A DNA stretch of 26,835 nucleotides from a virus (lineage: Duplodnaviria; Caudoviricetes). The position numbers and the translations under genes were made by a program. The notes under the pieces were generated by a model that was not told the DNA's origin, made no database searches, and saw only the letters and a list, made by a program, of their open reading frames with translations. The stretch spans positions 1-26,835 of the IMG/VR virus record IMGVR_UViG_3300044636_000037, one strand, 5' to 3'. How positions within the stretch are numbered: position 1 is the stretch's first letter; every line of letters begins with the position of its first letter. Below, piece after piece: positions 4,995 through 17,991 of the stretch.

Positions 4995-7949
4995 ATGAAT
5001 CAAAGTCAATCCATGGCGGGTCTTGCCTCCCTCGTGCAGTCACGGGGTCGAAACGGCGATTCCATGCTCGTCCACATGACCCCCGGCGAAGTTAAGGGGC
5101 TGCAGGCTCTGGCCTTTGCTCACGGTGGACAACTAAGCATCAATCCCGATACGGGGCTTTACGAGGCTAACTTCCTCAAGAAACTGCTGCCAACCATTAT
5201 TGGCGCGGTACTGACCCCGCTGACGGGTGGCTTGATCAACCCGCTGACGGCTGGGTTCCTTGTGGGCGGTGTTGAAGCGGCACGTACGGGCGACCTTGGC
5301 AAGGGCTTGATGGCTGGCCTTGGCGCGTATGGTGGTGCGGGGCTTAGCAGTGCGTTGGCGGGTACTGGGGCTGCAGCCGCCGCTGGAGCGGGTGAAGTTG
5401 CTAAAACGGCTGGCGCAGAAGCCGCCGCTGCCGCTGCTAAAGAAGGTGCCACTCAGGCTGCCCAAGAGGCTGCTAAGCAGGCGGCTATGAAAGAAGCGGC
5501 ACAGGCACAGATTCAGAAACAGATCGCTACCAAGGGTATGTTTGGTCGCTTGCCCGAAGGCGTGGCAAGTTTCAAAAACATCGGCGCTGGTGCTGGGGAA
5601 ATCTTTAAGACCGGTGGCGCTGGCCTTGGCGGTATTGGCGGCATGGGCGCAGCCGGGTCTGCGTTCGGTACGCTTGGTATGCCTGCTAAAGCGGGTCTTA
5701 CTATGACTGCCGCTAACGCACTTAGCCCCGACATGGAAATGCCGGAAGGCGGTGGCTATCAGATTGACGACTCCTATTACGAGTCTATGGGGTACAGCCC
5801 CGAGCAAGGCCGCTTCCTTGGCGGTCAGTGGCGTAAGGGCTATCCCGGCTTTCCCCCGCCGGGCATGGCAGGGGGCGGCGTAATCCCAGCCCCGAACGGC
5901 AATTATCCGTTGGCTAGACCGTCAGAGAGTGTTGGCGGGTACGAGATGGATATTGATCCGTACACTGGCGAGGAGCGGTTTGCTGATGGCGGCAGCGTCG
6001 GTAATCAGAGTCTTGAACAGTATTATCAGAGTCTCCTTGCGCCTCCGACGCAGCAGGGTGGCGGCAACCCAGCCTTCTCAAACTATCTACAGAACTTTAA
6101 TCAGTTCGTGACTTCTCCAATTGCCGCTCCGCAGCAAGGTGGTGGCGGTGGACAACCCGGCGGCGGTCAGCCCGGTGGAGGACAACCCGGTGGTCAGCCG
6201 GGTGGTGGAGCAGGACAGCCCGGTGGTGGGAGACCCGGTGGTGGGAGACCCGGTGGCCCCCGTGGCGGTACAGCCCCCGGTGAACCCGGCGGCGTTGAGT
6301 ACGGTGATTTCTCCGATATGGGAAATACCGGCGGCATGCAATGGGACGCCAATCAAGGGCGTTTTGTTTCGACTGGGCCGCAGAACCCGTTTGCTGGTGG
6401 AATGCCCACAGGTAACCCGTTCGCAGGGTTTGGCAACATAGATTTCTCTGCGATCCAAGACTATTTTAGAAACGCTGGCGCAGGGGGCGGTGCTGGGCGC
6501 GGTGCGGGTGCGGGTGCGGGTGCGGGTGCGGGTGCGGGTGCCGGTGCTGGTGCTGGTTCCGGTGGTATGCCGGGAGGCCAGAATCAATATAGCGGTGATG
6601 AATTTACCGGCCCGACTGACAATCAATTCGGTGGAGACATGGGCGGCGACGGCGGGATGATGTACGCCGGAGGCTCAAAAGACTTCGACGAAACCACTGG
6701 AATGTACCGTGGTGATACGGGTCAAGGATTTGGTACGGCACAGCCTGACCAAAGTGGCGCTGGAACGCCTGATTTTAGTGGCATGGATTTCAGTAATTTG
6801 GATTTGTCCGGCCTACAGAATCTTAATCTCTCGGGTATGGGCGGCGCAGGTAGTTACATGCCTGATATGTCTGCGTTCGGTGGTGGGCAGCAGGCAAACC
6901 CGAATCCGTTTGCCGATAACTATTCCCCGCCTGCTGATACGGGCATGGGTGAAGTTGCTTATCGCGGGGGTTCGCCTAGTTTTGATATGACGGGTGGCGG
7001 TAGGGAATATACGCCCCCTCCTGAATTCTCTAGCGGCCCGATATCACCCATGCAACCGCAGGTTGAGCCAGAAGTGCCTACTGGTGGCGGTAGACCGTCT
7101 AATGATTTTTTTGGTGGGGCTATGGCTCCGACTTCGCAAACGTTTGAACCAGAAGTACCGACTGGCGGCGGTAGACCGTCTAATGATTTTTTTGGCGAAA
7201 TCATGGCTCCGACTTCGCAGACGTTTGACATGCAGCCTTACATGCCTCAACCCCAGCCTGCTCCGCAACCGGCTCCACAACCGGCTCCGCAACAACCTGC
7301 GCCTAATATGGGTGGATTTGGCGGCTTCGGTGGCATGGGCGGTATTGCTGGTCTTGCGGGTCTTGGAGGTATGGGTGGTATGTCACAACCCGCGCCTCAA
7401 CCGGCTCCTCAACCCGCGCCCCAACCGGCTCCTCAACCCACACCACAACCTGCCTTTGACTACGGCGCAATGATGGCTCAACAGCCTGCTCCGTCGTTTG
7501 ATATGGGTAGTTTTGGCGGTGGTATGGACTTTGGCGCTATGCAGCAGCCTGCCTTTGACTACGGCGCAATGATGGCTCAACAGCCTGCTCCGTCGTTTGA
7601 TATGGGTAGTTTTGGCGGTGGTATGGACTTTGGTGGTATGGATTTCGGTAGCATGGGCGGCTTTGCCGCAGGTGGCCCGATTCAATACGCCGCTGGCGGT
7701 AAGTTCTTGCGTGGCCCCGGCGATGGCATGTCGGATGACATCAAGGCGAACATCAATGGTGAGCAGGAAGCCCGGTTGGCTGATGGCGAGTTTGTCATCC
7801 CCGCCGATGTGGTTTCCCATATCGGTAATGGCTCAAGCGAAGCCGGTGCTGATAGGCTCTACAAGATGATGGCTAACATCCGCAAGGCGCGTACCGGAAA
7901 GACCCGGCAAGCCCCGCAAATTAACCCGAAGAAGTACCTACCCTCATGA
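4995..7949 (+). CDS. Gly/Pro/Met-rich internal virion (ejection-type) protein with a tape-measure-like C-terminal module
   Basis: 984 aa; globular-looking termini ('GRNGDSMLVHMTPGEV...INPDTGLYEA'; 'GPGDGMSDDI...RLADGEFVIPADVV'), Gly/Ala-rich hydrophobic segment, long low-complexity centre. Confidence 0.7.
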   Translation: MNQSQSMAGLASLVQSRGRNGDSMLVHMTPGEVKGLQALAFAHGGQLSINPDTGLYEANFLKKLLPTIIGAVLTPLTGGLINPLTAGFLVGGVEAARTGDLGKGLMAGLGAYGGAGLSSALAGTGAAAAAGAGEVAKTAGAEAAAAAAKEGATQAAQEAAKQAAMKEAAQAQIQKQIATKGMFGRLPEGVASFKNIGAGAGEIFKTGGAGLGGIGGMGAAGSAFGTLGMPAKAGLTMTAANALSPDMEMPEGGGYQIDDSYYESMGYSPEQGRFLGGQWRKGYPGFPPPGMAGGGVIPAPNGNYPLARPSESVGGYEMDIDPYTGEERFADGGSVGNQSLEQYYQSLLAPPTQQGGGNPAFSNYLQNFNQFVTSPIAAPQQGGGGGQPGGGQPGGGQPGGQPGGGAGQPGGGRPGGGRPGGPRGGTAPGEPGGVEYGDFSDMGNTGGMQWDANQGRFVSTGPQNPFAGGMPTGNPFAGFGNIDFSAIQDYFRNAGAGGGAGRGAGAGAGAGAGAGAGAGAGSGGMPGGQNQYSGDEFTGPTDNQFGGDMGGDGGMMYAGGSKDFDETTGMYRGDTGQGFGTAQPDQSGAGTPDFSGMDFSNLDLSGLQNLNLSGMGGAGSYMPDMSAFGGGQQANPNPFADNYSPPADTGMGEVAYRGGSPSFDMTGGGREYTPPPEFSSGPISPMQPQVEPEVPTGGGRPSNDFFGGAMAPTSQTFEPEVPTGGGRPSNDFFGEIMAPTSQTFDMQPYMPQPQPAPQPAPQPAPQQPAPNMGGFGGFGGMGGIAGLAGLGGMGGMSQPAPQPAPQPAPQPAPQPTPQPAFDYGAMMAQQPAPSFDMGSFGGGMDFGAMQQPAFDYGAMMAQQPAPSFDMGSFGGGMDFGGMDFGSMGGFAAGGPIQYAAGGKFLRGPGDGMSDDIKANINGEQEARLADGEFVIPADVVSHIGNGSSEAGADRLYKMMANIRKARTGKTRQAPQINPKKYLPS
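6501..6554 (+). repeat. In-frame hexamer microsatellite (GGTGCG)x6 plus 3 degenerate units, encoding (GA)n
   Basis: Read directly from the sequence. Confidence 0.95.
7065..7226 (+). repeat. Tandem 81 nt imperfect duplication (EPEVPTGGGRPSNDFFG..MAPTSQTF x2)
   Basis: Copies start at 7065 and 7146. Confidence 0.95.
7449..7633 (+). repeat. 86 nt exact direct repeat, 99 nt period (PAFDYGAMMAQQPAPSFDMGSFGGGMDFG x2)
   Basis: 7449-7534 is identical to 7548-7633. Confidence 0.95.
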
Positions 7950-8404
7950 AAGTAACCAAACTAGAAGTCAACGAACGAGACATTGACCGGATTTTTCTGG
8001 TCATTACTCGTGACTTCGCCAACGAGCACAGCATGGGCAAACTGAGTGCCTCAAACCATAACGCAGAGAAAGGTCTGCTCTGGGGCATCAAGAACATTGA
8101 GTGCGGTGCTTGGGTAGTAGAAGACGATGCCGGTAAAGTTCTTGGCACTATCGGCATTCACCGTACTTCTCCATGGTACTCGGACGAAGAGTATCTTGCT
8201 GACGGATGGTTCTACGTACTTCCTGAGTATCGTAAGACCGGCGTAGGTAAGATGTTGTTGGATGCGGCTACTAATTTTGCCAAGGAACAGGAACTGCCCT
8301 TAATTGTCGGCGTGTTCAATATGGATGACACCGGCAAGAAGATTGAAATCATGAATCGTATGGGGCTTAAACTTATTGGCGGCTTGTTCGCCACAGGAGT
8401 TTAA
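7946..8404 (+). CDS. GNAT-family acyl/acetyltransferase
   Basis: Motif A 'FYVLPEYRKTGVGKMLL' and GNAT-like size and pattern; ATGA overlap with the upstream gene. Confidence 0.88.
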   Translation: MKVTKLEVNERDIDRIFLVITRDFANEHSMGKLSASNHNAEKGLLWGIKNIECGAWVVEDDAGKVLGTIGIHRTSPWYSDEEYLADGWFYVLPEYRKTGVGKMLLDAATNFAKEQELPLIVGVFNMDDTGKKIEIMNRMGLKLIGGLFATGV

Positions 8405-8406
8405 CT

Positions 8407-10488
8407 ATGTGTGGCGGCGGCGGTGGTGGTAGTTCAGCACCTACTCAACAAACAGTTACTCAGGTAACGATACCTCCTGAGTTGATGCCGTATGCCAAGA
8501 AGGTTCTTGGCACGGCAGAAAATCTTACATACAACCAGCCCTACCAGACTTATGGTGGGCAGCGCATCGCAGGGCTTAACCCGCTCCAGCAACAGGCGAT
8601 GCAGCAGATTCAGCAGCAACAGACTGCTTCTCAAATTGGTCAAGCCACCGGTATGGCTGGGCTTGCTGGGCTTCAAGCCCAAAAGTTAGGGCAATACAGT
8701 CCAGCCCAATATCAAGGGTTAGACGTTAGTTACCTTGGCGCACAGGCTCCCAGTCTACAGCAGTACCAGATGGGGCCAGCAGAGCGTGTATCTGCCGACA
8801 AAGTAAAAGCCCAGAAACTACAGCAGTTTCAGATGGAAGGGCCAGAAAGCGTTGCGGCTCAAACTGATTTTGGTTCTGTCTCTGCACCCGGCCTTCGCGA
8901 CATTCAGATGGGTGGGCCGCAACAGGTTCAAGCCTCTCAAGTTGCTGGCGCTCAAATGGCTGGGCCGCAGCAGGTTCAAGCACCGTCTGATCTTGAGCGA
9001 TTGCAGATGGGGCCAGCCGAGCGTGTCGGCACTCAAGCCCTTGAGCAGTATCAGATGGGGCCAGCCCAGCAGGTTCAGGCTGAACGGTTTGGCCTTTCTT
9101 CACTTCAGCCATACATGTCTCCGTACATGCAGGACGTTGTGGAGACCCAGAAGCGTGAAGCGATGCGCGATGCAGCCCGTCAGATGCCGGGTGTGGGTGC
9201 TGCCGCTGCACGTGCGGGAGGTCGTGGCGGTAGCCGCGAGGCGCTTCTTCGGTCTGAGTCGCAGCGCAATTTGTCTAATCAGTTGCAGGGCATACAGGCT
9301 ACCGGTACGCAACAGGCGTTCCAGCAGGCTCAGCAGCAGTATGGCGTTGACCGTGCCCAAGCGTTGCAGGCCGCGCTGGCTAACCAACAAGCGGGTCTTA
9401 CCACGGGCCAGCAGAATCTGGCTGCACGACTTGGCGTCCAGCAGTTAGGCGCACAACAGGGACTGCAGGCTGCTCTTGCCAATCAGGCAGCGGGTATGCA
9501 GGTCGGTCAACAGAATCTGGCTGCAGCACAGAATCGCCAGCAGTTGATGGCTCAGCAGGGGCTGGAGGCTCAGCGGCTTAACCAAGCAGCGGGTTTGACT
9601 GCTGGTCAAACTAACCTTCAAGCACGTATGCAAGCCCAGTTGGCTAACCAACAGGCTCAGCAGCAAGCAGCGTTGGCTAATCAGCAAGCAGGACTTACTG
9701 CCGGTCAAGCCAATCTTCAGGCTGCGCTTCAGACGCAGGGGCTTGGCGCACAGCAAGGGCTGCAGGCTCAGTTGGCTAACCAACAGGCCCGTATACAGGG
9801 AGGCCAGATGGGTCTCCAAGCGTCGTTGGCTAACCAGCAGGCTCGACAGAGAGCGGCTGAGCAGAACCTTCAGGCTAGGCTCGGCGTTCAGCAATTGGGC
9901 GCACAGCAAGGGTTGCAGGCTGGACTTGCTAATCAACAGGCTAGGATGCAGGCAGCACTTGCCAACCAGCAGGCTGGTCTGACCACCGGTCAGCAGAACC
10001 TTGCCGCACAACTCGGTGTTCAGCAGTTGGGAGCGCAGCAGGGTCTACAGGCTCAGTTGGCTAACCAGCAGTCTCAACTTCAGGCGCAACAACAAGCCCT
10101 TGCTCAACGTCAGTTTGGGGCGCAGTTTGGTGAGCAGTCTCGGCAGTTTGGACAGAACCTTGGTCTCCAAGGTATCCAGCAGCAGTTGGCTGCGGCGGGC
10201 ATGCTCGGCAATCTGGGTCAGCAGCAGTTTGCTCAACAGCAAGGTATCAACCAAGCCCAGATGGCGGCAGGCCAGCAGATGCAAGGTCTGGAGCAGCAGA
10301 GGCTTCAGGCTGCGTACGAGGACTTCCTCAACCGGCAGCGTTACCCGTACCAGCAACTTGGCTTCATGTCAGACTTGATTCGCGGTACGCCGACCGCTGG
10401 CGGGGTTCAAAGTCTTTACGGCGCACAAGCCAGCCCACTTGGAGCCTTAGCAGGACTCGGTGGTCTATACATGGCTGGTAGAGGCTAA
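8407..10488 (+). CDS. Gln-rich DNA ejection/pilot-like protein with hendecad repeats
   Basis: 693 aa; AGGAG RBS; starts MCGGGGGGSS; central 'YMSPYMQDVV...GGSREAL'; long Q/A/L/G/N 11-residue repeats; hydrophobic Gly-rich C-terminus. Confidence 0.75.
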   Translation: MCGGGGGGSSAPTQQTVTQVTIPPELMPYAKKVLGTAENLTYNQPYQTYGGQRIAGLNPLQQQAMQQIQQQQTASQIGQATGMAGLAGLQAQKLGQYSPAQYQGLDVSYLGAQAPSLQQYQMGPAERVSADKVKAQKLQQFQMEGPESVAAQTDFGSVSAPGLRDIQMGGPQQVQASQVAGAQMAGPQQVQAPSDLERLQMGPAERVGTQALEQYQMGPAQQVQAERFGLSSLQPYMSPYMQDVVETQKREAMRDAARQMPGVGAAAARAGGRGGSREALLRSESQRNLSNQLQGIQATGTQQAFQQAQQQYGVDRAQALQAALANQQAGLTTGQQNLAARLGVQQLGAQQGLQAALANQAAGMQVGQQNLAAAQNRQQLMAQQGLEAQRLNQAAGLTAGQTNLQARMQAQLANQQAQQQAALANQQAGLTAGQANLQAALQTQGLGAQQGLQAQLANQQARIQGGQMGLQASLANQQARQRAAEQNLQARLGVQQLGAQQGLQAGLANQQARMQAALANQQAGLTTGQQNLAAQLGVQQLGAQQGLQAQLANQQSQLQAQQQALAQRQFGAQFGEQSRQFGQNLGLQGIQQQLAAAGMLGNLGQQQFAQQQGINQAQMAAGQQMQGLEQQRLQAAYEDFLNRQRYPYQQLGFMSDLIRGTPTAGGVQSLYGAQASPLGALAGLGGLYMAGRG
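9367..10146 (+). repeat. Protein-level 11-aa repeat array (23 hendecads + one 7-aa unit)
   Basis: Parses as QAALANQQAGL/TTGQQNLAARL/GVQQLGAQQGL etc., with a 33-aa super-repeat; DNA copies are synonymously diverged. Confidence 0.85.
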
Positions 10489-10511
10489 AGGCCCGTAAGT
10501 AGGAGATGTAA

Positions 10512-12005
10512 ATGGCACAGTCACTTCAGGGCATATCTGCGCTTGATCCGCGAGTTGCGGCGACCGATAAGTTCATCCAAGAGAAGCAGATTCCTCCCGA
10601 TCAGGTTGAGGACTTCTTGCTTGGCATGGGGGCTGACCCGCGTCTGGCTTCTCTGGTATTCAAATACCGCAAAGTGAAAGAGGCGGCAGAAAAACAGCAG
10701 AATGAGAAACCCTCGACTAGCAACGTCGCTGATGAAGTTTCTAACCAATACGCTCAATTAAAGCAACAGGAGCGTATGCGTCAAGGCGTGGCTGGTATGC
10801 CGACGCCGAATCTTGCACGTGCAGCGATGCGTGGTGGTATTACAGGTGAACCTGCACCGCAGGCGCAAATGGCTGGTGGCGGCATCGTTGCGTTTGATGA
10901 TGGTGGGTCTATACCGCGCAACCGCTCTCTAGTGCCATACAAAGCGCCGTTTTATAAGCGTGCGGCAGGTGCGGCCTTGGGGCTTGCTCGTAGACATCCG
11001 CTTGGCTTGGCAGCAAGTTTGCTCGGCCTTGGCGCTTTGGTTGGCGGAGACGAAGAGGAAGCCCAGCAGGCTCAAGAAGCAAGTGTTGAGCAGATTCCTG
11101 AAGGTCTCTCGGCAGAAGACTACCGTACGCTTGCTTCTATGAATATGGGTCAAGACCAAACCGGTGCTGGTGCTGCAAGACCTCTTTCTGCGCCGCCGAA
11201 ATCTGCGGCAATAGACCTCTCGCCGTTAGAGAAACGACTGGCTGAAGCAAAGGCTAGGTTGCCCAAGGACGAGCAGGCAGCGATTGATGCTGAACTTGCC
11301 AGAGAGAAGCCGTACCTTGAGTCGCTGGCAGCGCGGCGTTCCAAGATTGAAGAGCAGGAAAAGAAAGGCACGACTTCAGCAGAAAAGAAGTTCTGGCTGG
11401 CGTTTGCACAGGCTGGGTTTGCGGCATCTGCCAAGGGTGCGCGTAACCTTTGGGAGACTTTGTCTATTGGCGGTGCCGAAGGCATGAAAGCCTATGAGGC
11501 AATCAAGGATAAAGAACAGCAACTTCTTGAGAGACTGCAGGACAAGAAGTTACAACTTGACGATCTGGAAGCACAAGTCAAACGTGGCGCGACCAAGTCT
11601 GGTATCGACCGGCTTGATAAACTTCGTTCTGAAGTTACATCGGCTCAGAGTGAACTTACCAAGACTCAAGTCGCTGTTGGTCTGGCTGACAGAACCGAAG
11701 CCGGTGCTAACTATCGCGCTAGACTTGCTCAGGAAGGTGCTGACCGTCGTGCTTCTACGGCGAGCAAAGCCCTCAGACTTGATCAGGCAATCGACAACGC
11801 TATCCTAAAATCGACCGATCCGAACCTGACCGAACAACAACGGCAGGCTGCGGCGAAGTTGGCTAAAGAACTTATTGCTCAACGTGCGCGTAAAGAGGCG
11901 ACGGAGTCTGGGGCGCAGTCGCAGGCAGCAAGACTTTCTATGCAGCGTGAGTTGTTAGGACTCGGTGGAGAAGGCGACGGATTTGGCGGTCTTGCTGTAG
12001 AGTAA
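10512..12005 (+). CDS. Alpha-helical internal virion/ejection protein
   Basis: 497 aa; AGGAG RBS; 'MAGGGIVAFDDGG' motif, a hydrophobic segment and extensive coiled-coil character; position in the ejection block. Confidence 0.7.
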   Translation: MAQSLQGISALDPRVAATDKFIQEKQIPPDQVEDFLLGMGADPRLASLVFKYRKVKEAAEKQQNEKPSTSNVADEVSNQYAQLKQQERMRQGVAGMPTPNLARAAMRGGITGEPAPQAQMAGGGIVAFDDGGSIPRNRSLVPYKAPFYKRAAGAALGLARRHPLGLAASLLGLGALVGGDEEEAQQAQEASVEQIPEGLSAEDYRTLASMNMGQDQTGAGAARPLSAPPKSAAIDLSPLEKRLAEAKARLPKDEQAAIDAELAREKPYLESLAARRSKIEEQEKKGTTSAEKKFWLAFAQAGFAASAKGARNLWETLSIGGAEGMKAYEAIKDKEQQLLERLQDKKLQLDDLEAQVKRGATKSGIDRLDKLRSEVTSAQSELTKTQVAVGLADRTEAGANYRARLAQEGADRRASTASKALRLDQAIDNAILKSTDPNLTEQQRQAAAKLAKELIAQRARKEATESGAQSQAARLSMQRELLGLGGEGDGFGGLAVE

Positions 12006-12009
12006 TCTC

Positions 12010-15000
12010 ATGCCTCGCTACAAAGTCACAATGCCCGATGGGAAAACGTACTCCATCGAAGGGCCAGCGGGGGCTAGTAAAGAACAGGTGATCGCCGCCG
12101 TTCAGCGACGTATTGGTGCCGCTGAAGAAGAAACCACGCTAGGTGGCGAAGTAAAAGAAGCCTTCAAGGGCGTGATTCCCGGTGCTGCTGGGCTGCTTGA
12201 GACGGCGGCTACAGGTGCCGCTGCGTTACTGCCCGAAAAGGCAGAGATGGCTGTTCGTGGTAAAGCCGCTGAATTGGCTGGTGCTGCACGTGAAGCCTTC
12301 AAGGCTACTCCCGGTTACGAAGAATCTACGGGCCGTAAGTTCGGTGAGGCTCTCGGCTCGACCGCCCCGTTCTTTGCGCTTGGCCCACTTGGTGCGGCTG
12401 GACGGGCTGGTGCAGTTGGTCTTGGTGTCGGGGCTGGCGCAGGCGAGGCACGGCAACGTGCCGAGATGGAAGGTGGTGAAGAAGATAAAGGTCTCGCTAC
12501 AGCGGCGGGTGCCGTTATCGGCGCAAGCGAAGCCATACCGGTATTCAACTTTGTAAAGCGTTTACCACGTGACGCACAACTAACCATACTAGATCGCATC
12601 AAGCGAGGCTTTCAAGCAGCCGGTGAAGAAGGCGCACAGGAAGCGGCATCGCAGATCGCCCAGAACATTGTGGCTAAAGGTTTGTATAAGCCTAGCCAAG
12701 AACTGATTGAGAGTGCTGGCGAAGAAGGTGCTTACGGCGCAGGTGTCGGTGCCTTCATTCAGGTTCTTACAGACATGGCGCTGGGGCGTCGTGTTCGCGG
12801 TGTTCAGCCGCCTCAAAGTGCTGAAGAGAGATTGACTGAGGAAGAACCTCCTCCGACTGCTCCTCCCGGTACGCAGGCTTCTGTAAAGGAAGAAGTAGCC
12901 CGGCAAACTCGGGAAGAAGAAAAGATTAGGGCGGTTATTGACGAAGAGAAAGATGCAGCCGATGAAGAGGCGCGGCTTGAGCGCGAAGCCGTTCAAGCCT
13001 ATGAACGTGAGCAAGAAGAACTTACAGCGAGACGCGGTTATGACGAGCAGACTCTGCGTGAAGCGGCAGAGGCTGAAGCACTTGCACCCGTAGAAGACGA
13101 GGGTGTGCCGTACACGCCGCCTGAGCGTAAGGAAGAAGTCGCTCCGGTGGAGGAGGAACCTACTGTTGAAGAGCCAACGGTAGAAGCCCCAACTGTAGAA
13201 GAACCTGAATACACGATGCGGGATGCCGCCCTTGAGGTGTTCAAGGAGACGGGCAAGACCAACGTAGATACGTTACGTAATCGGTTGGCTATTCCGCTAC
13301 AGGAAGCCAAAGAACTTAGGCAGTCTTTAATTGACGAGGGCGTACTTGTAAGGCGTGGCAACACCTATATATTGCAGGAAGTAGAGACGGCTCCGGCTGC
13401 TAAAGCAGAGGAGGTTAAAGATGCAGACATACGCGCCAGAGATATTGAAGAAGTTGACGTTGGAGCAGTTGGAGGAAGCGATGTACTGCCTCCATCACGA
13501 CCTGTATCCGCAGGACAAGTTACTGCAGAGCCTGCAGTTGCCTCAATGGAACGAGTTGGCGAACCTGCTGCAGTTGCTCCTGCGGGAGCGGAGATCGTCG
13601 AACCTGCACTAGAAGATATTGACGTTGCCCAAGAAGAACTTGAGGCAGCACAGACTCCATCTCGCGCTACAAGCATACGCACGGCTGCATTGGATTTCGT
13701 CCGTGCTACTGGCAAAGCAGACCCAATTAGTCTTCAACAGACACTTGGTATAGAACTTTCTGAAGCCAGAGCGTTACGTGAGGCGCTGGTTGGCAGTGGC
13801 GCTATTGTTCCCGTACCGGGTAAGAAAAACCTGTACACGGTGTTTGAGGAACTCAAGACCACGCCAGTAACTCCAGCGCGTGAAGGCCGTATTGAAGGTG
13901 AGTCGCTTACCGCTGCCAGACCTGAAGTGCTTCAAGGTGCGCCACGGCCTGCTGTGCGTGAAGTATTGCCAGAGGTTTCTGAAGAAAAGCCCGGTGTTAC
14001 GGCGGTCGGGAAACGTACACAAGTTAGTCCAGAGTTTCAGTCTACGTTAGACGATTTGCGTCAATTAGCCGCTGCACCTGATATGGAAGGTAGGCAGTAC
14101 GGGCTTGATCTTGTAGGCGGCGAAGCGCGTGGTGTTACACGCAAGAAACTAAGTCCTGCCGAAGTTAACAATGCTAAGACTTTGGGACTTACTAAAGAAG
14201 CCACGGCATACGCTGCCAATCCTGCCGGTGTTGCTGAGCGTAGAACGCTGATTGAGGCTACCAAAGCCAAGCACAAGGGGCTTGTAGAACGAGCAGTCGC
14301 TCTGCAGAAACAAGAGTCAGATAACCGTAAGATTGGTAAAGAAAAAATATTAAGCGACGGATTTTTCCGTAGCCTATACGGCACTCTGTCAGACCCACAA
14401 ATAACTATGGGTCAACTTGTTGAGGCTGAGAACAGGTTAAAGAAAAGCGAAGCCAAGTACGGTGAAGTTGTCGCTCCGCAGGTGGCGGCTGAACAGGCTA
14501 CGTTTGAGGAAGACACAGAATTCCGCGAAGCAATTAAGGCCCAAAAGGCCCGTGCCGAAGAACGTGAAGAAGCGGAGAAAGCCGCTCGTGAAGAACGCCG
14601 TCGTACTCGTAAGAGAGACATCGGGCTACGTTTTGAACGCGGTAAAGGCGCAGGCATGGACGCTGATCGCGTTTACGAAATTGCCACCAAGACCGCTGCC
14701 AACTGGAAGAACAAGCCGCGTATCTTCGTTGTGCAGTCTATTGATGAACTGCCAGAGACTTTGCGTGCCAGAACTCCAGATGACGTTAGCGGTTTCTACA
14801 TCAACGGCGATGTGTTCCTGATCGCTGACAACGCTACCACAGAGGCTAACGTACGCGCCACGATGTTCCATGAGTCTTTAGGCCACTTCGGGCTTAAAAA
14901 CTTGTTTGGTCGTCGTTTACGCGAAGTGATGTTAGACATCTATCGCACTAACCCTGCGATGCGTAAAGCCGCTGATGGGTATTTTAAGAGGTTTCCAGAC

Positions 15001-17991
15001 GCGTATAAGTACATGAATGACGCTGATCGTCGTTCTATGGCTATTGAAGAAGTCCTTGCCGAGGCTTCTTCTAAGGGAGTAATCAAAGACGCAGGTATAC
15101 GTGCGGCGTTCAATCGTGTTGCTGCCATGATCCGCAAGTTCATTCGCGGTATGGGCATACAAATCAACTACAGCAACAACGATGTTCGTCAGATTCTTAT
15201 TGAGGCGCACGATACGGTTACCACTCGTGAACGCGAGGCTAGACTTAGCCCGTCTGGCGAACCGATGTTTCAGCGCAGGCAGGCTAAAGAACGTCTTAGC
15301 AACGTCTTCGATGTAAACACTACCGCACCTCGTTACGACAACAAGATTGGCGACGGCGTACGCAGTTCGCTGGGCAACGTGTACGACAATTTGCGTGACG
15401 GGGCCATCTCGTTCCTGTCAATACCGCAGATTGCCGAGGTGTGGGCTAAGGAACTTCCGTCTGTTGCTAAGTTAGACACGCTACTTGGTAATCGTGGCGC
15501 GACCGAAATGCGTCGGCGTGAGGAAGTTAGCACCAACGTAACCAAGTGGTTTGAACTGTCTAACAACTACAAAGACAAACCTGAGACGCTTGAAAGGTTC
15601 TTCAAGGTAGCGAACCTGACCACGGTTTATCAGGTTGACCCGCTTAAGGACTCGGTGCAGGCAGTCCTCAAGAAACCGAAGGACAAGATGACGCCCTTCG
15701 ATAAAGTTTCTTATGACATTGTCAGAGAGTACAACAGTCTGCCTGCCGATCTCCGTAAAGCGTACAAAGACCTGCGCGAAGATTACGAGAACAAGTCGCA
15801 ACAACTCTTCAAGTTGATGGAGCAGCGGCTTGGTAAGGATGTTGTAGACAAACTCAAAGCCAAGTATGACGCGAAGCGTTTGCAGGTGTACCTGCCGCTC
15901 TGGCGCGATGGCAATTATTGGTTGTCCTACACAGACAAGAACGGCGAGACGATTGTTGCCGCATACGCGAGTGATCTTGACCGTCAGCGTGGTGAGGACG
16001 CTGCCCGAGCAGAGGGCGGCAAAGAGTTTTCTACGTTCTCAAGACTGCGCGATGCCCGTCGCAGCGGCCCCCCGCCGACTGGGTTCTTGGGCGATGTAGT
16101 CCGTGAGATGGAGAACAAAGGTGCGCCGCAGGACATGATTGATGCGGTGTATGAGACTTTCTTGAACTATCTCCCGGCAGAATCCATCCGGCAGATGTAC
16201 CGTCCTCGTGAAGCCTCGTTTGATATAGCCACGGGCGTTGATCGTTACGGCGTGTTCGGCTTTGAGCCTGATGTGTTTCAGGCTTACTCCAACGTGGCTA
16301 CCCGCATGGCGAACCAACTCACGAACCTTGAGTACGCCATCCCGCTTGAAGAGACGATGAATGAAATCTACAAGCAGGCAGGTGGTGAGCGAGTCAGAGA
16401 CAGGACGCTTGGTGCCGTATACAGCAATCTGAAGAAGCAAGTTGACTTCATCCGCAACCCAGAAAAGAACTGGCTGGTGGACGGAGCAAGTTACTTTAGT
16501 TACCTGTGGTTCATAGCCGGTAACATTTCTTCGGCACTAATCAACACGACCCAGTTGCCTATGGTTGTGGCTCCGCTGCTGATGGGTAAGTACGGCGTGG
16601 CTAAGACTACCGCTGCCATGGACAAGGCCATGAGCACGTATTTCAACGGTGGTTGGGATACGAACAATGCTGGTAAAGGCGCTTTCCCGTCTGACTTCAC
16701 GTTTGGCGAAGCCGCCAATTTAGACCGTAAGTACAAAAAGTTATACCAGACAGCCGTTGCTCGTTCAGTCATCCGTCGTTCAACCGGATACGAAATCACT
16801 GAAGCACAAAAGGCTGGCGTGAAAGACTACGTTGGCATCAAGGCACGTGTAACTCATGGCCTTGGCTGGCTGTTCCAAAACTCCGAGCGTTTCAACCGCG
16901 AAGTTACTTTGCTTGCTGCGTTTGACCTTGCTTACGAGAGAACTAAGAACGTAGACAAGGCTATCGAAGAAGCCTTGAAAGTAGTCAGTGACGCACACGG
17001 TTCTGCTCTTGCCGAGACTGGGCCGCGCTTGTTCCAGCAAGGGTTTGGTAAGGTGATGTTCACCTTCAAGCGGTTTGCTCAAGCGCAAATCTACTTGCTC
17101 AGCAGATTGTTCAAGCAAGCATTTGGCGATGCTGACGCTCAGACGCGGGAAGTTGCACGCAGCCAGTTGATAGGTATTTTTGGTTCGTCTTTCCTCATTG
17201 CCGGTCTGCAAGGCATGCCGATGTATGGCGCAGTAGAGTTCTTAGCGAACCTGCTTATGGGCGACGATGACGAGCCGTACGACTTCAATGCTTACGTAAA
17301 CGATAAGTTCGGTGAGACGGGTCGCAAGGGGCTGCTCAACCAGATGATCGGCGTGGACGTTGCATCTCGTACCGGCTTCAACGGGCTGATCTGGCGCGAT
17401 GACCCGAGGCGCATGGCCGAAGTCGGGCCATTCTTGTACACGCTAGAGCAGGCGATGGGGCCAGCCTACGGCGCGTTCCTTAGCGCACAGCGTGGCGTAG
17501 AACTGTTTGGTGAAGGCGAGTACATGCGGTCTATTGAGGCTATCACTCCGTCCTTCATACGTAACGGCTTCAAAACTCTGCGTATGGCAGAAGAAGGCGT
17601 AAGAAACAAAGATGGTACGCCTGTCGTTGAAGACATCGGCGGCTACAACTTGATGATGCAAGCGGTTGGCTTCAATCCTGCCGAAGTTGCAGAAGCCCGT
17701 GAACGTGCCGGTGTTGATGCCAAGTTTGATTCCAAGTTAAAGAAGCGTCGTGCGGCTTTGATCGACCAGTACAACGCTGCGTGGCAGGAAAAGGATCGTC
17801 AGGGCATGCAGGAAGTTCTGGCTGACATAAAGAAGTTCAACCAGAAGAACCCGCGACAAGGGCTTATCATCACACCGGAAACGCTGATGAAGTCACTTAG
17901 CGGCAGACGTTCGCGTCAGTTGCAGTCAGTAGATGGCCTATACCTGCCATACGGTGTACGTAGTCGCGTGGAAGAATTGGCTGGCAACTAG
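12010..17991 (+). CDS. Large polyvalent-type virion protein (zincin-like metallopeptidase motif, PLxRFG-like region, two wHTH-like domains)
   Basis: 1993 aa; HESLGH (14869-14886) with downstream EEVLAE; 'YLPLWRDGNY' (~15889-15918) resembles the PLxRFG motif; last and largest late gene, as expected for major ejection proteins. Confidence 0.75.
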   Translation: MPRYKVTMPDGKTYSIEGPAGASKEQVIAAVQRRIGAAEEETTLGGEVKEAFKGVIPGAAGLLETAATGAAALLPEKAEMAVRGKAAELAGAAREAFKATPGYEESTGRKFGEALGSTAPFFALGPLGAAGRAGAVGLGVGAGAGEARQRAEMEGGEEDKGLATAAGAVIGASEAIPVFNFVKRLPRDAQLTILDRIKRGFQAAGEEGAQEAASQIAQNIVAKGLYKPSQELIESAGEEGAYGAGVGAFIQVLTDMALGRRVRGVQPPQSAEERLTEEEPPPTAPPGTQASVKEEVARQTREEEKIRAVIDEEKDAADEEARLEREAVQAYEREQEELTARRGYDEQTLREAAEAEALAPVEDEGVPYTPPERKEEVAPVEEEPTVEEPTVEAPTVEEPEYTMRDAALEVFKETGKTNVDTLRNRLAIPLQEAKELRQSLIDEGVLVRRGNTYILQEVETAPAAKAEEVKDADIRARDIEEVDVGAVGGSDVLPPSRPVSAGQVTAEPAVASMERVGEPAAVAPAGAEIVEPALEDIDVAQEELEAAQTPSRATSIRTAALDFVRATGKADPISLQQTLGIELSEARALREALVGSGAIVPVPGKKNLYTVFEELKTTPVTPAREGRIEGESLTAARPEVLQGAPRPAVREVLPEVSEEKPGVTAVGKRTQVSPEFQSTLDDLRQLAAAPDMEGRQYGLDLVGGEARGVTRKKLSPAEVNNAKTLGLTKEATAYAANPAGVAERRTLIEATKAKHKGLVERAVALQKQESDNRKIGKEKILSDGFFRSLYGTLSDPQITMGQLVEAENRLKKSEAKYGEVVAPQVAAEQATFEEDTEFREAIKAQKARAEEREEAEKAAREERRRTRKRDIGLRFERGKGAGMDADRVYEIATKTAANWKNKPRIFVVQSIDELPETLRARTPDDVSGFYINGDVFLIADNATTEANVRATMFHESLGHFGLKNLFGRRLREVMLDIYRTNPAMRKAADGYFKRFPDAYKYMNDADRRSMAIEEVLAEASSKGVIKDAGIRAAFNRVAAMIRKFIRGMGIQINYSNNDVRQILIEAHDTVTTREREARLSPSGEPMFQRRQAKERLSNVFDVNTTAPRYDNKIGDGVRSSLGNVYDNLRDGAISFLSIPQIAEVWAKELPSVAKLDTLLGNRGATEMRRREEVSTNVTKWFELSNNYKDKPETLERFFKVANLTTVYQVDPLKDSVQAVLKKPKDKMTPFDKVSYDIVREYNSLPADLRKAYKDLREDYENKSQQLFKLMEQRLGKDVVDKLKAKYDAKRLQVYLPLWRDGNYWLSYTDKNGETIVAAYASDLDRQRGEDAARAEGGKEFSTFSRLRDARRSGPPPTGFLGDVVREMENKGAPQDMIDAVYETFLNYLPAESIRQMYRPREASFDIATGVDRYGVFGFEPDVFQAYSNVATRMANQLTNLEYAIPLEETMNEIYKQAGGERVRDRTLGAVYSNLKKQVDFIRNPEKNWLVDGASYFSYLWFIAGNISSALINTTQLPMVVAPLLMGKYGVAKTTAAMDKAMSTYFNGGWDTNNAGKGAFPSDFTFGEAANLDRKYKKLYQTAVARSVIRRSTGYEITEAQKAGVKDYVGIKARVTHGLGWLFQNSERFNREVTLLAAFDLAYERTKNVDKAIEEALKVVSDAHGSALAETGPRLFQQGFGKVMFTFKRFAQAQIYLLSRLFKQAFGDADAQTREVARSQLIGIFGSSFLIAGLQGMPMYGAVEFLANLLMGDDDEPYDFNAYVNDKFGETGRKGLLNQMIGVDVASRTGFNGLIWRDDPRRMAEVGPFLYTLEQAMGPAYGAFLSAQRGVELFGEGEYMRSIEAITPSFIRNGFKTLRMAEEGVRNKDGTPVVEDIGGYNLMMQAVGFNPAEVAEARERAGVDAKFDSKLKKRRAALIDQYNAAWQEKDRQGMQEVLADIKKFNQKNPRQGLIITPETLMKSLSGRRSRQLQSVDGLYLPYGVRSRVEELAGN
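13421..13612 (+). CDS. Candidate overprinted gene (63 aa) in the +1 frame of the 1993 aa gene
   Basis: AGGAGGT at 13409-13415, 5 nt before ATG; helical, Leu-rich, protein-like translation. Confidence 0.55.
   Translation: MQTYAPEILKKLTLEQLEEAMYCLHHDLYPQDKLLQSLQLPQWNELANLLQLLLRERRSSNLH

Follow-up and report, generated by a model that had tools for sequence, protein, structure and literature searches.

The late gene block and its last gene

The window, that is, the whole stretch of DNA analysed (26,835 nt), is a phage fragment whose virus record is 42% complete. Its + strand late block, which comprises endolysin, tail and GNAT genes and ORFs of 693, 497 and 1993 aa, converges on a replication block. 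The tail gene is nearest to those of DSL-LC04, MinM2, HTVC023P-type and CRP-901 phages, at 30-34% identity. The last gene of the block, inside which a second gene is nested, is called the host gene below. Its features are as follows.

12010..17991, + strand: host gene for a 1993-aa polyvalent, probably ejected, late protein; last of the GNAT/693/497/1993 aa block
12010..12834, + strand: N-terminal Gly/Ala-rich module, aa 1-275, aligned across 45 host genes
13207..13407, + strand: first wHTH-like repeat, about aa 400-466, FtsK-gamma-like by alignment to relatives
13666..13845, + strand: second wHTH-like repeat, about aa 553-612, missing from L046, L049 and L069
14623..15279, + strand: zincin-like metallopeptidase (MPTase) region, with the HExxxH motif at about aa 954-959
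15364..17940, + strand: LPD39 match (aa 1119-1277) and DarB-like C-terminal region (aa 1280-1977)

The two wHTH-like repeats are 34% identical to each other. Neither of them, nor the N-terminal module, matches Pfam; the aligned domains of two relatives (L033 and L028) match FtsK_gamma. An HExxH or HExxxH motif, of several types, lies downstream in all 50 host genes examined. The LPD39 match is to Pfam PF18858 (E 6e-7) and the DarB-like match to phrog_10089 (E 2e-79); in phage P1, Ulx is a helper for DarB packaging. Because of the LPD39 match, the DarB-like PHROG and the HExxxH region, we regard the product as a polyvalent protein in the sense of PMC5512222. The MPTase and LPD domains together with the late-gene context mark the host gene as that of a phage polyvalent protein, and in its late context, peptidase motif, LPD39 and DarB-like matches it resembles those treated in the available text of that paper.

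At 4995-7949 lies a 984-aa Gly/Pro/Gln-rich ORF with several internal repeats, for which no match was found in Pfam or PHROG. At 7946-12005, a GNAT gene stands ahead of three large low-complexity genes. This order is like that of the ejection genes of T7 (genes 13-16) or P22 (genes 14, 7, 20 and 16), and it supports the view that the block is an ejection block. Judging from the gene order and the available text of PMC5512222, the host protein is probably packaged in the virion and ejected.

A nested ORF with its own initiation signals

The following features were located in the +1 frame of the host gene and immediately upstream.

13421..13612, + strand: nested +1-frame gene, 63 aa, inside ORF 12010-17991; predicted soluble helical protein
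13409..13415, + strand: Shine-Dalgarno (SD) sequence AGGAGGT of the nested gene, 5 nt upstream of ATG 13421
13610-13612, + strand: nested stop codon TAG, which closes the +1 frame
13382..13384, + strand: nearest upstream +1-frame stop, 12 codons ahead of the ATG; the open frame is 13385-13609
13346..13373, + strand: weak sigma-70-like site (9 of 12), 47 nt ahead of the nested ATG; chance level

The SD, the ATG and the 63-codon ORF from which an overprinted gene had originally been predicted are thus all present, with the expected peptide. The length of the ORF is not beyond chance, and the host gene also holds +1 ORFs of 124, 119 and 77 codons. Among the alternative-frame ORFs of at least 30 aa in the host gene, the nested ORF is the only one with an SD match of at least 5 nt. 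Across lineages the nested start is ATG, GTG or TTG, 56-67 codons upstream of the stop. An SD match of at least 5 nt precedes 31 of 37 lineage starts; for the remaining +1 start-like codons of these genes the figure is 132 of 6727. The contrast is inflated because starts were chosen partly by their SD, though each ORF offers few candidate starts; in three of the 37 the match is of 3 nt only. The original prediction carried the caveat that Glu-Glu-Val codons can create such an SD by chance. This caveat is answered by the persistence of the SD while the host residues over it vary by lineage. Initiation of the nested gene on the late mRNA, independently of the host start, is very likely on these data.

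A promoter of its own was rejected for the nested gene, since the promoter scan stood at chance level, with two sigma-70-like sites found versus 1.2 expected. The first hexamer of the site at 13346-13373 is unchanged at synonymous positions in six of six close relatives, and the site is not evident in distant lineages. Two contigs from RNA libraries (X1 and X3) span part or all of the nested ORF; the libraries were covered in small shares, as assembled contigs only, and are uninformative on transcription or translation.

Selection on the nested frame

No stop interrupts the nested ORF in eight relatives (0/8), versus 6/8, 7/8 and 5/8 for the control +1 ORFs of 124, 119 and 77 codons, respectively. 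Only at the nested ORF does +1-frame identity exceed host-frame identity; over the three control ORFs the host frame is the better conserved one. Over the nested interval, for example, locus L069 and the window share 84% identity in the nested frame and 52% in the host frame. The pN/pS ratios, computed without correction over 55 gap-free codons, are 0.07-0.25 for the nested frame versus 1.2-5.6 for the host frame in seven close pairs, and 0.40-0.64 versus 1.1-1.9 in five distant pairs. Third positions of the nested codons vary most (29/55, versus 11/55 for second positions). Host third positions are variable in 11 of 55 overlap columns, versus 40-53 per 45-55 columns in well-aligned windows elsewhere, and just upstream of the overlap 30 of 46 are variable. 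Among the variants listed, the two that fall inside the ORF alter the residue of the host frame and are synonymous in the nested one.

These comparisons indicate that selection acts on the +1 frame and that the host frame is passive over the overlap. The comparison of the two frames proposed along with the original prediction therefore turned out in favour of a real nested gene, whose SD, start, open frame and stop are kept in homologues; the loss of the SD and ATG or the +1-frame stops that it had named as evidence against itself were not encountered. By comparative evidence the overprinted gene is real, and the pattern of substitution indicates that selection maintains it in dozens of uncultured phages that are only distantly related. 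As a case of overprinting it is unusually clean. Moreover, since the linker of a 2000-residue protein is shaped here by a gene in another frame, the host-frame pN/pS above 1 could be misread as positive selection.

Nested genes are already known in phages, among them lambda Rz1 inside Rz and T7 18.7 inside 18.5. The available text of PMC8227390 gives phiX174 E inside D as an internal overprinted phage gene, and states that most overlaps, internal ones especially, are +1 and that disorder in one partner eases them. Like E/D, Rz1/Rz and 18.7/18.5, the present pair consists of a whole gene inside another on the same strand, in the +1 frame, with its own start and stop. Unlike E, Rz1 and 18.7, the nested product is no lysis or membrane protein and its host is a 2000-aa polyvalent gene; an o-spanin of the Rz1 type was rejected, as there is no hydrophobic signal or transmembrane segment and the host gene encodes a polyvalent protein. 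The present pair also differs from the three known ones in that the nested frame is the conserved one, with host-frame pN/pS above 1, and in that the cassette stays while the flanking host domains swap. Nested +1 genes in phages are therefore not new, but this family is conserved, unannotated and new. No nested gene in a polyvalent protein is described in the available text of PMC5512222, where the word 'overlapping' occurs 0 times.

Distribution among viral sequences

Twelve viral loci were matched directly with the nested peptide as query, and 46 cluster representatives of the family were found among 1.84 billion proteins. The homologue search suggested for the 63-aa peptide was extended with a profile, which matched 115 of 40,533 six-frame ORFs in 152 records (51 distinct peptides). 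Each of the 115 matches is on the + strand and nested, in the +1 frame, within an ORF of at least 800 aa. Many of these sequences had gone into the profile itself, so that its E-values are not independent; an earlier profile was largely independent of the distant loci that it found. The carriers, tallied by hand, are 66 IMG/VR contigs plus metagenome contigs, and the median pairwise identity among members is 33%.

An unbiased sample was obtained from loci fetched by the host C-terminus (70 distinct contigs, tallied by hand). The family is present in 36 of them; 23 are cut before or within the linker and have no match, and 11 are 5'-complete and do without the family, so that 33 of 44 5'-complete host genes carry it. 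The 11 non-carriers make similar giant proteins and are mostly the most distant, at 26-29% identity to their query; one of them (L062) is 40% identical to L056. Distant library members led to 18 further contigs, and the gene is nested in every case. In whole-record searches, each of 10 known carriers had a single copy, and 20 other records, including two with a completeness of at least 98%, had none. No copy standing free of a giant gene turned up in the 152 records or in 30 whole records, scans that were protein-seeded and covered the context of a minority of the 46 library representatives.

Among cultured phages, tblastn with two members gave nothing better than E>=0.5, and in nine cultured phages, those whose giant or tail proteins are closest, the profile had no match. 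Neither the nested peptide nor the host C-terminus matched prokaryote genomes, and these searches therefore give no hint of the host bacterium. Because gene callers overlook the nested gene in nearly every assembled genome, the family, which counts 46 or more clusters at 50% identity, is without a Pfam, PHROG or structural entry.

Predicted fold of the nested protein

AlphaFold2, run with 49 sequences, predicted the nested protein with a pLDDT of 82 and helices at residues 7-11, 14-26, 33-36 and 40-60. The best 19-residue hydropathy is 0.12-1.53 in 68 members, none of which has a transmembrane segment, and the net charge is acidic in 66 of the 68. The product is accordingly predicted to be a small, soluble, mildly acidic helical domain. 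The conserved positions are a Leu/Trp core together with E56, K/R57, L62 and H63; few surface residues beyond the tail are conserved.

The window peptide matched no Pfam or PHROG family; one PHROG appeared weakly (E 0.12-0.15), and a Pfam scan of 68 members gave scattered weak matches, each to at most 4/68 members. In PDB sequences the best match reached only E 0.23, and Tsi2 rows at E 0.56-1 were taken as chance. Foldseek found nothing at E<=0.001 in PDB and BFVD, the best match of a VIA fold search (Z 5.0) is within the range of common arrangements, and an Atlas search gave generic helical matches only and no feature match. These blank searches do not establish a new fold. Nested residues 12-30 (window 13454-13510) resemble the first helix and Y-P turn of a homeodomain, and homeodomains fill the weak VIA list (Z 3.6-4.5). 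In the comparison with Homeodomain/Myb/HTH three-helix domains the best Z was 5.0, with 66 of 68 members net acidic, and the likeness was taken as a common arrangement.

By its sequence, the nested product represents a protein family without earlier description. Neither the family nor nested genes in polyvalent proteins were described in the literature searched, in which PMC5512222 was represented without its supplements, which could hold alignments.

Linker setting and module exchange

Over the nested interval the host frame is, as anticipated, a featureless linker, of Pro/Ala/Glu/Val/Gly composition. The gene lies in this linker because it is the only late-operon stretch with nearly free main-frame sequence. 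The predicted position between two wHTH domains holds for the window lineage and fails elsewhere (L042, L046, L047, L049, L051-L061 and L069). Only the upstream repeat is present in L046, L049 and L069 and only the downstream one in L042 and L047, and in L051-L061 other domains or none flank the nested gene. A fixed tie to the wHTH domains was rejected, as the flanking domains differ among lineages.

The window and L042 are 86% identical in the N module and 78% in the C module, and 49% in the nested peptide; the corresponding values for L134 and L148 are 95%, 89% and 47%. Meanwhile, L027 and L137 keep the nested gene with C-termini only 15-17% like that of the window. The rank correlation between nested identity and the identity of either host module is 0.32 (45 host genes). 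Nested alleles thus reassort independently of the N- and C-terminal modules of the host gene. This reassortment fits a conserved outside target, in the bacterial host, better than a dedicated partner, and weighs somewhat against a dedicated partner of one host-gene module. The DNA similarity of close relatives often breaks at the nested stop (window 13610-13670; L043, L046, L049, L069 and L018), which suggests that the stop marks a module-exchange boundary.

The C-terminal tail and Lon

The most conserved stretch outside the core was seen in a 68-row alignment.

13586..13609, + strand: conserved tail E-[KR]-x4-[LVI]-H, residues 56-63, Lon-degron-like

In this alignment E56 is found in 66/68, K/R57 in 63/68 and H63 in 63/68 members. 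The search profiles include the tail, and the measured conservation is to that extent biased upward. Among the 51 distinct locus peptides, 48 end in His, 47 in [LVI]H and three in Asn; terminal His is also found in 41 of 46 library representatives. By comparison, terminal His occurs in three of 420 long ORFs of the same loci, and an [LVI]H end in about 1.4% of the remaining +1 fragments (18/1323, by subtraction). The host residues over the tail vary, so the host frame does not force it.

T4 PinA is a phage protein that acts on Lon. As described in the available text of PMC11986505, C-terminal Lon degrons end in an obligatory His after an aliphatic residue (examples are ...TLH, ...TVH and SulA), with the consensus x-L/I-L/I/V-H; tested degrons in its table also have Thr at -3. 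In the available text of PMC10665427, the small protein LarA regulates Lon via a His-bearing C-terminal tail, and HspQ is cited as a Lon regulator. The terminal His preceded by L/I/V of these degrons is thus present in 47 of 51 distinct peptides, but the L/I of the published consensus at -3 is Asn in the window and L/I/V in only 9 of 35 locus peptides. Like SulA-class degrons and LarA, the nested product is small, with a short non-helical C-terminus and a terminal His after an aliphatic residue. It has no Pfam family match to these, to HspQ or to PinA; it is usually polar at -3, is phage-encoded and overprinted, and has a role at Lon that is only putative. No consistent Pfam or PDB match links the family to the dedicated Lon regulators LarA, HspQ and PinA. 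Recognition of the tail by the host Lon is probable on this evidence.

Possible function of the nested protein

We tentatively prefer a reading in which the nested protein engages Lon late in infection, as a decoy or modulator, and thereby protects the ejection proteins; it is a possible reading, short of a probable one. The gene would be translated from its own ribosome-binding site on the late mRNA, and its [LVI]H tail would engage the host Lon protease. Acting as a decoy or modulator during the synthesis of the ejection proteins, it might shield these large, low-complexity or unfolded proteins from proteolysis until they are loaded into heads. This reading is preferred because it joins the constant tail, the co-expression with ejection proteins and the free exchange of alleles. 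Against it, residue -3 is in most members not that of the published consensus, the prokaryote-genome searches pointed to no host bacterium from which a Lon preference could be read, three of the 51 members end in Asn, and 11/44 5'-complete relatives do without the family; the degron may also only shorten the lifetime of the protein, without bearing on its job. The nested protein could instead be a short-lived chaperone or inhibitor of the giant protein (its N-terminal module or MPTase) or of a neighbouring ejection protein, cleared after packaging through its Lon tag. It is always nested in one gene (115/115) and on the same mRNA, an MPTase motif lies downstream in 50/50 host genes, its body is acidic and amphipathic, and MPTases have been proposed, in the available text of PMC5512222, to process polyvalent proteins at a set time. 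A dedicated partner of this kind is nevertheless somewhat unlikely, as alleles of about 50% identity pair with near-identical host modules, the rank correlation is so low, similar alleles occur in host genes of different MPTase clades, and non-carrier host genes have MPTases too.

Free allele exchange is compatible with any target in the bacterial host, and the folded body might instead inhibit another host machine late in infection, with the His tail as a timer only. SulA and the phage Kil proteins are such inhibitors of host machinery. In the available text of PMC11986505, SulA is an inhibitor that itself carries a terminal-His Lon degron. The Pfam, PDB, Foldseek and VIA searches gave no sequence or fold link to a known inhibitor, and with few conserved surface residues beyond the tail we consider this reading unlikely. 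The diversity of alleles among otherwise close phages, the linkage to an ejection gene and the weak promoter-like site upstream would suit a superinfection-exclusion factor that blocks incoming ejection proteins and changes specificity by allele swapping; but with no transmembrane segment in 68 members and a promoter-like site that does not rise above chance and does not recur in distant lineages, such a role is very unlikely. There remains the view that there is no separate gene: either the first 470 host residues would be extended at their C-terminus by a frameshift into the ORF, or the ORF would merely shadow an RNA or DNA element that is itself conserved. Independent initiation is indeed a reading of sequence, but the +1 stop at 13382..13384 restricts any frameshift entry, and the +1-frame stops immediately before the nested ATG in L052 and L061, and one codon away in L051, leave no room for a slip site. 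The SD and start recur though N-terminal lengths differ between lineages, and the nested third codon positions are the most variable, as protein selection, and not an RNA element, predicts. This view is hardly credible.

Returning to the Lon decoy or modulator, the broader proposal would be that an ancient gene for it, of de novo origin, is present in a large group of aquatic podophages not yet cultured, overprinted on the linker of the main ejection protein and moving from phage to phage as a dual-coded cassette; taken as a whole this is rather doubtful. If it were true, small unannotated genes directed at the host would generally be stored in the linkers of giant ejection genes, and where this family is missing other nested families would fill its linker slot. 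Should the prediction for the tail be right, phages would have a further means of acting on Lon, and the survival of large unfolded ejection proteins up to packaging could be tested directly. The nested gene is short and its product predicted to be soluble, and each hypothesis is therefore testable in laboratory strains of E. coli or Caulobacter, with no need of the phage.

Other nested ORFs in giant genes

A second short basic +1 ORF, with the core K-P-S-K-Q-K-R-K, was seen in three loci (L062:6025-6159, L051:5848-5934 and L054:5515-5628) and not in the window. In L051 and L054 it lies just downstream of the first nested gene; L062 lacks the first family, and there the second ORF has an SD, a GTG start and 44 aa. 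Non-carriers have other SD-led +1 ORFs in the same linker region, at L114:5977 and L115:5977 (51 aa), L116:5116 (60 aa) and L120:6331 (55 aa), of which those of L114-L116 are alike. A 71-aa SD-led +1 ORF of ordinary protein-like composition (L127:6474) lies downstream in a 2573-aa giant gene that also carries the first family. In addition, a 67-codon +1 ORF that is rich in Leu and has an SD-like site is found at host residue 127-129 in six loci (L110:4459, L111:3988, L112:3661, L114:4483, L116:3577 and L117:3586); it may be a mere shadow of the conserved Gly/Ala module.
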